Source: Eledone cirrhosa
Lineage: Eukaryota
Direction of reading: 5' to 3'
DNA length: 64,000 nucleotides
Assembly (NCBI GenBank): GCA_964016885.1
Contig: OZ024742.1
Coordinates: forward strand, 169,756,001-169,820,000
The notes under the pieces are model-generated. The model was not told the DNA's origin. It did no database searches and worked only from the letters and a program-made list of their open reading frames with translations. Of the stretch, positions 12,156 to 13,869 are shown piece after piece. The position numbers were made by a program, and so were the translations under genes. The number at the start of each line of letters is the position of its first letter. The stretch's first letter is position 1.

Positions 12156-12439
12156 TATATGTATATTTATATGTATATGTATATATATATATTTATATAT
12201 ATGTATGTATATATATGTATATTTATATATATGTATGTATATATATATGTATATTTATATATATATATATATTTATATATATGTATGTATATATATGTAT
12301 ATTTATATATATATGTGAATATAGACATAGAATATTCGAAAATATTCTGTATGTTTATAATAAACATTTTGAAGACCTAATCGCTATAGAATAGAATACG
12401 TCACGTATTACAATTAGATTCTCGATAAAAGCAAGGGAA

Positions 12440-12482
12440 GTAATCTACGCGTTTCATTCTCGTTAGAAATCATCAGGACTAC
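12440..12482 (-). ncRNA. Type I hammerhead ribozyme (inverted arm copy)
   Basis: Reverse complement reads GTAGTC CTGATGA tttct-aacg-agaat GAAA CGCG TA GATTAC. Confidence 0.9.
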
Positions 12483-13006
12483 ATATCCAGTGCTTTTATC
12501 GAGAATGACACAGCTAGAGACTTATAGAATACTTAGCTGTGTACAGGAACTGGTTTGAAAGAGCGGTTGCTGGTCCGGCAGAAATTAGAAATTGGAATAA
12601 ATGCTCTGAAATAGCGATATATATGTGAATATAGACATAGAATATTCGAAAATATTCTGTATGTTTATAATAAACATTTTGAAGACCTAATCGCTATAGA
12701 ATAGAATACGTCACGTATTACAATTAGATTCTCGATTACTTCCCTTGCTTTTATCGAGAATCTAATTGTAATACGTGACGTATTCTATTCTATAGCGATT
12801 AGGTCTTCAAAATGTTTATTATAAACATACAGAATATTTTCGAATATTCTATGTCTATATTCACATATATATCGCTATTTCAGAGCATTTATTCCAATTT
12901 CTAATTTCTGCCGGACCGGCAACCGCTCTTTCAAACCAGTTCCTGTACACAGCTAAGTATTCTATAAGTCTCTAGCTGTGTCATTCTCGATAAAAGCACT
13001 GGATAT

Positions 13007-13049
13007 GTAGTCCTGATGATTTCTAACGAGAATGAAACGCGTAGATTAC
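13007..13049 (+). ncRNA. Type I hammerhead ribozyme, copy 1
   Basis: Stem I GTAGTC/GATTAC, CTGATGA at 13013-13019, stem II ttct/agaa, GAAA, palindromic stem III (A)CGCG(T), GUA cleavage triplet at 13041-13043. Stem I extends through attctcgataaaagca/tgcttttatcgagaat (12983-13071). Confidence 0.92.
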
Positions 13050-13316
13050 TTCCCTTGCTTTTATCGAGAATCTAATTGTAATACGTGACGTATTCTATTC
13101 TATAGCGATTAGGTCTTCAAAATGTTTATTATAAACATACAGAATATTTTCGAATATTCTATGTCTATATTCACATATATATCGCTATTTCAGAGCATTT
13201 ATTCCAATTTCTAATTTCTGCCGGACCGGCAACCGCTCTTTCAAACCAGTTCCTGTACACAGCTAAGTATTCTATAAGTCTCTAGCTGTGTCATTCTCGA
13301 TAAAAGCACTGGATAT

Positions 13317-13359
13317 GTAGTCCTGATGATTTCTAACGAGAATGAAACGCGTAGATTAC
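13317..13359 (+). ncRNA. Type I hammerhead ribozyme, copy 2
   Basis: Same as copy 1, offset +310. Confidence 0.92.
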
Positions 13360-13626
13360 TTCCCTTGCTTTTATCGAGAATCTAATTGTAATACGTGACG
13401 TATTCTATTCTATAGCGATTAGGTCTTCAAAATGTTTATTATAAACATACAGAATATTTTCGAATATTCTATGTCTATATTCACATATATATCGCTATTT
13501 CAGAGCATTTATTCCAATTTCTAATTTCTGCCGGACCGGCAACCGCTCTTTCAAACCAGTTCCTGTACACAGCTAAGTATTCTATAAGTCTCTAGCTGTG
13601 TCATTCTCGATAAAAGCACTGGATAT

Positions 13627-13669
13627 GTAGTCCTGATGATTTCTAACGAGAATGAAACGCGTAGATTAC
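13627..13669 (+). ncRNA. Type I hammerhead ribozyme, copy 3
   Basis: Same as copy 1, offset +620. Confidence 0.92.
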
Positions 13670-13826
13670 TTCCCTTGCTTTTATCGAGAATCTAATTGTA
13701 ATACGTGACGTATTCTATTCTATAGCGATTAGGTCTTCAAAATGTTTATTATAAACATACAGAATATTTTCGAATATTCTATGTCTATATTCACATATAT
13801 ATCGCTATTTCAGAGCATTTATTCCA

Positions 13827-13869
<43 letters not shown>

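Follow-up and report, generated by a model that had tools for sequence, protein, structure and literature searches.

A 64,000-nucleotide stretch of the Eledone cirrhosa genome (GCA_964016885.1, contig OZ024742.1, positions 169,756,001 to 169,820,000 of the forward strand; hereafter the window) carries an insert built of 310-bp non-coding units, in which two multimeric arms bearing hammerhead ribozymes meet head to head. The family to which this insert belongs is very probably a retrozyme mobilised by Penelope-like elements (PLEs), because its insertions leave the footprints of that machinery, namely head-to-head arms, (TA)n targets and a tail that just one of the two ends has. Most inserts appear to copy a single monomer, and copying of a monomer circle is probably the main route. 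A sequence-only reading of the same stretch had described one array at 12311..13830. Its tandem is real on the right side (12734-13830; period 310, 3.5 copies, 100% matches in Tandem Repeats Finder), but a minus-strand arm of 1.39 units is also present (12307-12736), so that the whole is a head-to-head inverted pair rather than one tandem run. This asymmetric architecture, left uninterpreted in that reading, is the most informative feature of the insert. The unit itself was described correctly. It has a GC content of 34.5%, its longest ATG-started open reading frame (ORF) encodes 30 amino acids when the tandem is scanned, and the two arms differ by one substitution (window 12571, unit position 185). 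An autonomous PLE would carry a reverse transcriptase (RT)/GIY-YIG frame, and none lies within the 310-bp unit. Unit position 1 denotes the first base 3′ of the predicted cleavage site (window 13044). The parts of the insert are as follows.

12155..12314, no strand: left (TA)n target, with a candidate 14-bp target duplication at 12301-12314.
12307..12736, minus strand: left arm, 1.39 units; the outer (RNA 3′) end at unit 139 is the “short” end, inside an AU-rich tract, and the inner end is at unit 20.
12734..12736, no strand: head-to-head junction, where the arms overlap by 3 nt (GAT).
12734..13830, plus strand: right arm, 3.54 units; the inner end is at unit 1 and the outer, “tailed” end at unit 167, 28 nt past the short end.
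12983..13071, plus strand: 16-bp perfect stem (12983-12998 with 13056-13071) that prolongs stem I; the inner junction falls here at two other loci too.
13100..13280, plus strand: backbone, unit ~57-235, common to an older family with other hammerheads; it holds a conserved hairpin, a closing stem, the short initiation site (~13172-13182) and the tail (13183-13215).
13827..13917, no strand: right (TA)n target, with the second candidate copy of the duplication at 13827-13840.

The family is large and dispersed, and young, as had been supposed. The exact core pattern has 12,188 matches in the 3.0-Gb genome and a variant-tolerant hammerhead pattern has 18,158 (~5.6 Mb); the reversed control gave 0 in both searches, so chance is excluded. 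Junction patterns recover 1,321 short ends (control 18) and, on the forward strand, 778 tailed ends, the reverse-strand count of the latter being inflated by overlapping reports. By our estimate the genome has ~1,500-2,000 insertions, which are very young and lie in (TA)n. Mapping covered the window and 90 fetched regions, the latter all within the first ~150 Mb of contig C1 and taken from the places listed first. Two regions were dropped (L039, cut by a gap; L091, the same locus as L109) and L123 was merged with L124, leaving 88 loci. The repeat has the features of a non-LTR retrozyme: its 310-bp tandem units are non-coding, contain one type I hammerhead apiece and have a GC content under 50%, and its multicopy insertions are dispersed, with duplications longer than 4 bp (14-15 bp at L033 and L041) and no LTR, the primer-binding site and polypurine tract not having been searched for.

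It is evident that the complete two-armed insertions share one asymmetric anatomy. Among the 88 loci, 77 are two-armed and head to head, and 11 are one-armed (10 short-ended and one tailed); L088 has a tailed stub of 11 nt. At all 75 two-armed loci with both ends visible, one outer end lies at unit 126-139 and the other at unit 163-172, never two alike, and the short end aligns to unit 139 in 71 of 77. Because 31 of the 75 had been chosen by both ends, they are no test of this rule, which holds in 44/44 of the others (12/12 hammerhead-chosen and 32/32 chosen by one end). One locus studied apart (L235) has a tailed-type end near unit 159. The mean arm length is 4.0 units for short and 5.7 units for tailed arms, and the longest arm has 45. 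In 52 of the 81 short ends, the terminal unit shows the target’s base instead of C131, which indicates that the AU-rich tract had paired with an (AT)n target. L041, a non-microsatellite site, has a clean target duplication of 15 bp, and a duplication of 14 bp is seen at L033; automated duplication calls are mostly uninformative within microsatellites, and the 14-bp candidate of the window, which sits inside one, is weak as evidence.

The inner ends are scattered round the unit with a mild skew (P = 0.02, Kolmogorov-Smirnov test), and 3 of the 152 lie within 5 nt of the cleavage site, versus 4.9 expected. A cleaved linear monomer, from which an arm would begin at the cleavage site, is thereby ruled out as the template, and the position of the window’s junction on that site is probably a coincidence. 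The same spread leaves classical twin priming, with one RT blocked by the other primer, unsupported. The 75 inner junctions comprise 40 with an overlap of 1-5 nt, 10 that are blunt, 4 with a longer overlap of 12-17 nt and 21 with inserted sequence; the overlap of 0-5 nt at 50 of them fits a PLE-type 5′ junction, and the (TA)n flanks fit a PLE-type target. At L103 (C1 ~45.2816 Mb), 272 nt of unrelated sequence separate the arms, possibly through a template switch to another RNA.

Endonuclease-positive PLEs are described as leaving a truncated, inverted copy in a (TA)n target, with a tail of 30-40 bp at just one of its ends (PMC8557442, PMC3846280), and the inverted copy with one tail expected of a non-autonomous PLE is present in 75/75 complete two-armed loci. 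For an anole PLE studied in vitro, RT starts at two internal sites and the sequence that separates them forms the tail; each strand of the target is cut and then extended, and a dimeric state is predicted (PMC11167929). Penelope/Poseidon, Neptune and Naiad elements share with our family the inverted 5′-truncated copy, the one-end tail, two internal RT starts and AT-rich targets, as well as microhomology or a palindrome at the inner junction and a hammerhead upstream of the initiation sites (PMC3846280, PMC8557442, PMC11167929). Unlike these elements as described there, the 310-bp family has no ORF, each of its arms is multimeric, and no matching autonomous family was found in our sample; its short site pairs with the target, whereas anole initiation is reported to be non-homologous (PMC11167929). 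The strict pairing of one short with one tailed end suggests that the two target strands prime as a pair; it speaks against self-priming on an antisense template, which is the reading given in PMC3846280. Mobilisation by a PLE, proposed in the sequence-only reading, is thus supported by insertion anatomy at the 88 loci.

Two explanations that dispense with a PLE can be weighed on the same anatomy. In the first, extrachromosomal circles of DNA would multiply by rolling circle and return to the genome at breaks in (TA)n, carrying the hammerhead along as a passenger, and homogeneous multimers of a single monomer would result as well; such DNA-level spread does not, however, predict fixed strand-polar ends with the PLE tail offset, annealing of the short end to the target, or the sense-strand excess of A>G changes described below, and we regard it as very improbable. 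Fold-back reads and collapsed repeats in the library or assembly are barely credible as the source of the pattern. Near-perfect palindromes and tandems do assemble poorly, and two of the regions abut N gaps, but the arms are unequal with different fixed ends, the flanks are not mirrored and the haplotypes are locus-specific. Contigs of a public sequencing run (X3, possibly the source data of the assembly itself) also carry the unit with loose (AT)n ends at 13182 (unit 139). Self-overlapping contigs of 340 nt occur in two other runs (X1 and X2, which like X3 and X6 are contigs of unrecorded kind); tandem DNA would give them equally, and the depth of X3 fits genomic DNA.

We then turn to the template. 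The same majority haplotype is found in both arms at 47 of the 49 well-covered loci, versus 375 of the 2,352 between-locus pairs (16%). At 12 of the 77 two-armed loci, every unit of both arms carries a private variant, that is, one unseen elsewhere among the 88 of ~1,500-2,000 loci. Founding by one randomly drawn unit predicts a fixed private change at ~10% or more of the loci, and 16% is seen. Only 80 singleton substitutions were found in 244,617 bases (0.10 per unit, 0.03%). These results suggest that most inserts copy a single monomer, most simply a circle, since a circle allows one monomer to give many units without a stop at the ligation point.

A PLE might instead copy mainly an uncut linear multimer, with both primers on one long RNA and the hammerhead mostly idle. 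Inner ends that disregard the cleavage site are expected under such a route, and hammerhead cleavage is reported to be dispensable for the anole PLE in vitro (PMC11167929). At six of the 77 two-armed loci (L078, L085, L102, L118, L131 and L209), the arms have minority variants in common or the haplotype changes within an arm, for which a single monomer cannot account. The shared variants are in mirror order counted from the outer ends at L118, L131 and L209; within-arm switches occur at three linked sites in L209, which needs a template of ~18 units or a double switch, and at position 276 in L078. These six loci point to longer templates entered at the same place by both primers, or to template switches. 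As the main route, however, multimer copying would never reset the diversity of an array, whereas singletons within loci are as rare as given above and differences between loci amount to 2.3 per unit; whole-array private variants and the lack of any singleton in 22 of the 55 loci with at least six units also speak against it, and arms would shrink in every round. We consider this route unlikely.

Variants repeated within one arm at five loci (L100, L102, L103, L123 and L128), including a repeat of ~27 units in the 45-unit arm, indicate that local duplication occurs too. They would be expected if PLE-type inserts of one or two units had grown later by unequal crossing-over or slippage, the route of Li et al. 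2026. As a general account this is improbable: 88-89% of the arms exceed one unit though the elements are so little diverged, both arms are multimeric with a common haplotype and private variants, and the arm ends never stray from the two initiation sites.

The hammerhead motif GTAGTC-CTGATGA-TTTCT(AACG)AGAAT-GAAA-CGCG-TA-GATTAC is present four times in the window, with cores starting at 13013, 13323 and 13633 on the plus strand and at 12476 on the minus strand.

12440..12482, minus strand: hammerhead of the inverted arm, predicted cleavage after 12446.
13007..13049, plus strand: hammerhead copy 1, with stem I 13007-13012/13044-13049, CUGAUGA core 13013-13019, stem II 13020-13033, GAAA 13034-13037, palindromic ACGCGU 13037-13042 and predicted cleavage after 13043.
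13317..13359, plus strand: hammerhead copy 2, predicted cleavage after 13353.
13627..13669, plus strand: hammerhead copy 3, predicted cleavage after 13663.
13044..13353, plus strand: predicted 310-nt RNA of unit length, reaching from one cleavage site to the next; fold −72.5 kcal/mol, z −3.91.

By sequence this is a type I hammerhead, with the CUGANGA...GAAA...UH core, helices I-III and the opening at helix I. Helix I has 6 bp, helix II has 4 bp on a U.U mismatch base, helix III is a single A-U pair closed by a palindromic CGCG loop, and GUA precedes the cut. The type I assignment of the sequence-only reading therefore stands, but its term “minimal”, which denotes a PLE variant, does not: the class is the “canonical” metazoan one, described with a 6-bp helix I, a 4-bp helix II, a helix III of 1-2 bp and a palindromic loop (PMC4209133). 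Its predicted cleavage positions (13043/13353/13663) agree with the motif, and only the minus-strand site at 12446 had to be added. The covariance-model check that it suggested gave a match to Rfam HH9, albeit a weak one (15.8 bits, below the gathering score of 52; E 0.17), and a 6-kb Rfam scan called no hammerhead; the miRNA matches in that scan are artefacts of an inverted short interspersed element (SINE) and (TA)n. In the mapped loci, no variant is fixed at the 11 core positions, and recurrent variants are found at N7, in loop 2, at 287, where the change restores a pair, and at 2, 276 and 277, where pairs are kept. Conservation of core and stems is thus seen, but no two-sided compensatory pair change occurs among the copies, which are so young that the power to find one is low.

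The monomer RNA is strongly self-paired, with 1 of 100 shuffles equally stable. Helix III within a single hammerhead costs ~5 kcal/mol (−1.4 kcal/mol for the active monomer fold, −6.6 kcal/mol without stem III), and in a transcript with two hammerheads the ACGCGU palindromes form stem III between units with a folding probability of 0.84-0.93. Since stem III is costly in one hammerhead and the palindromes pair between two, cleavage is predicted to be dimer-dependent.

Taken together, the following cycle can be proposed. Arrays would be transcribed, neighbouring hammerheads would pair through ACGCGU and release 310-nt monomers, and a host ligase would circularise them; a lone circle would form stem III with difficulty and hence be stable. 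A PLE protein would nick both strands of (TA)n ~14-15 bp apart. Of the two 3′ ends, one would then pair with the AU-rich tract (unit 128-139) and prime there. The other, scarcely paired or not at all, would prime on the same RNA at a point 26-33 nt more 3′, and this offset would be the tail. Both RTs would make several rounds of the template, giving 4-6 units on average and 45 at most, with no halt at the cleavage site, and the cDNA ends would be joined through 0-5-nt microhomology or short templated patches, giving the head-to-head anatomy observed. A minority of inserts would come from templates longer than one unit, and long arms would sometimes expand locally afterwards.

Several points weigh against copying of a self-cleaved, circularised monomer by a PLE, among them the six loci with shared or switched haplotypes and the five with within-arm repeats. 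Cleavage, expression and circles are predictions from genomic DNA, and the absence of core variants is not significant by itself, as ~1 would be expected. In Xenopus, 8/9 retrozyme dimers are reported to have failed to cleave in vitro (10.64898/2026.07.22.740005), and uncut RNA is given as the main substrate of the anole PLE (PMC11167929). The private variants are private with respect to 88 of ~1,500-2,000 loci, and the mapped loci besides the window come from a single part of contig C1. Finally, no autonomous PLE with the 3′ end of the unit was found in the window, at 34 loci of the young PLE family described below, or in 20 of the 150 listed GIY-YIG 3′ regions (10,597 candidates).

An excess of A>G changes offers a lead, and a lead only, since the sites were picked after the data had been seen. 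A>G makes up 8 of the 25 fixed substitutions, whereas it makes up 6 of the 80 singletons (P = 0.004, Fisher’s exact test); the ratio of A>G to T>C is 8:3 among fixed changes and 6:13 among singletons (P = 0.057). Seven A>G changes and no C>T change are located in stems (P = 0.0007-0.03, by the rate assumed). The change 276A>G, which affects a UAG of helix I, is found on five backgrounds of other sites, and three of the fetched backgrounds carry 20A>G. The markers neighbouring 276 lie only 8-19 nt away, so frequent recombination is an unlikely source of these backgrounds. No lone 276G is found among 718 units of A arrays, and thus 276G is not an RT error made per lap. Genome-wide, 276G has 834 copies, with 13 arrays among the first 100 matches listed, versus 5 lone copies of T and 0 of C; 20G has 795 copies, with 11 arrays among the first 100 matches listed, whereas the control 22C>T, a change tolerated through wobble pairing, has 8 lone copies. 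Both changes occur as whole arrays, and neither has a lone copy among the first 100 listed.

ADAR prefers stems and UAG. A-to-I editing of the template may, as a tentative account, explain the whole-array A>G changes. Weighing against it, A>G is not enriched at paired over unpaired A (7/8 vs 58/91, P = 0.14), UAG sites other than 276 show nothing comparable, the high counts possibly reflect descent from few founders, and selection or parallel changes at the other sites could give the same homoplasy. Inosine misreading was considered for the occasional A within arrays of 276G and rejected: in L235 the deviant unit has a change at 277 and no reversion, which leaves only L078 and L080. If the A>G changes do reflect editing, RNA editing would have become heritable DNA change in a mobile element. 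In its fullest form, which we hold to be doubtful as a whole, each array would be the frozen record of one Penelope reaction, in which the two nicked target strands prime the two RT sites of a dimeric enzyme 26-33 nt apart, both sites run round one 310-nt circle, the cDNAs then prime each other, and the circle has been A-to-I edited in its stems (276 and 20, ~5% of templates each), the edits made by the host being written as whole-array A>G and contributing to the evolution of the element.

The window itself holds two PLE copies, which had been put forward as candidate partner families.

488..3466, minus strand: young PLE copy with RT and GIY-YIG, 5′-truncated, with a CxxC linker; Neptune/Nematis-like by the description in PMC8557442.
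~5555..7000, minus strand: the other Penelope-like copy; near 5600-5645, ~60 nt before (TA)n, it has a degenerate motif resembling a hammerhead.

Neither shares sequence with the 310-bp unit, so that neither is supported as its source family. The family of the first copy (L165-L198) has many intact 784-aa frames, a ~1.1-kb 3′ untranslated region (UTR), in which a canonical hammerhead was not found, and head-to-head pairs. It has two 3′ ends too, 42 nt apart, the short one at an internal ATAT tract, and it may mobilise the unit in trans. PLE protein matches are absent from the interior of the arrays. In a side observation, a PLE ORF at L032:6400-7400 is only ~24% identical to that of the young family, yet the two have nearly the same 3′ terminus, which suggests 3′-end swapping or cross-mobilisation between PLE families.

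An older family, with 5,489 motif matches and units of ~320-385 bp, shares unit ~57-235 and both ends but has different hammerheads, which suggests that the hammerhead module was swapped when the young family arose. The hairpins just upstream of the short site stay paired across families, with two-sided changes in 3 of 19 pairs that stem from few independent events, and the backbone appears to be the best candidate for an RT-binding signal. At 30 loci of the older family, a small sample, no PLE ORF was found within 1.5 kb. This family, seen at L135-L164 and L036:4300-4750, has a donor-like GTAAGT after the hammerhead and an acceptor-like TTTCAG at the tail, so that a retained intron is possible. 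At least eight other hammerhead sequence types occur in the fetched flanks (L043, L091, L132, L145, L160, L173, L218 and others), several of them at PLE 3′ ends; one has a helix II nearly as in the 310-bp family and a long helix III.

Metazoan non-LTR retrozymes of coral, mussel and axolotl (Cervera and de la Pena 2020, PMC7229834) resemble our family: their tandem units, 150-450 bp long and with less than 50% GC, are non-coding and contain a single type I hammerhead each, there are thousands of copies, the monomer is extensively self-paired, and target duplications exceed 4 bp. The hammerhead of the 310-bp family unites features of two axolotl ones, the palindromic 1-bp helix III of Amex1 and the U.U at the helix II base of Amex2 (PMC7229834). 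The 310-bp inserts differ from the elements presented there in being almost always two-armed and head to head, with fixed asymmetric ends in (TA)n; the words “inverted”, “microsatellite” and “cephalopod” do not appear in the main text of PMC7229834, whose figures S6 and S9 may bear on architecture. Circles have been demonstrated for those retrozymes, whereas for the 310-bp family they are predicted. Our family also has a conserved non-ribozyme backbone, whereas metazoan retrozymes are said to lack a motif pointing to a partner (PMC7761336).

Xenopus retrozymes derived from PLE pseudo-LTRs (pLTRs) (Li, Clavereau, Pollet 2026, 10.64898/2026.07.22.740005) are similarly tandem hammerhead repeats read as non-autonomous PLE derivatives. 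There, the link to PLEs is made by co-occurrence and pLTR homology in 35 species, no mollusc among them, with local amplification suggested; here it is made by insertion footprints, and multimers formed at insertion are favoured. The MRC1-type non-autonomous elements of Chlamys (PMC8557442) are likewise PLE passengers with multicopy head-to-tail insertions; unlike our family, they belong to green algae, are described without canonical hammerheads, and have 3′ ends that resemble known autonomous families. In the giant squid genome, 235 hammerhead matches were counted and left unanalysed (PMC6962438). The 310-bp family and its architecture are not described in the literature we found on cephalopod hammerheads or retrozymes, head-to-head retrozymes, Penelope twin priming and editing; Dfam and Repbase were outside the scope, and the family may already be catalogued there. 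We take it as a new family of a known kind, whose insertion anatomy is new relative to what the cited papers present.

For animal retrozymes, PLE mobilisation and copying of a circle for more than one unit have stood as hypotheses of genome entry (PMC7229834, PMC4209133, PMC7761336); PLE-driven copying of retrozyme circles was proposed, untested, in PMC7229834, and the 2026 preprint, which suggests local expansion, states that the mechanism remains to be elucidated (10.64898/2026.07.22.740005). With ~1,500-2,000 near-identical insertions, a countable PLE signature, mapped initiation sites, a candidate structure for RT binding and a single-template pattern, the rival routes become distinguishable.

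Other repeats are also present in the window. A SINE with a tRNA-like head flanks the insert in several inverted copies (11354-12129 and 14013-14302). Broken copies of long interspersed elements (LINEs) with RT matches lie at 8209-11150 on the minus strand and at 22046-22807 on the plus strand, the first with a PHD-finger-like stretch inside the RT region. A satellite of 7 kb, with units of 21, 24 and 45 bp, occupies 55973-63100.
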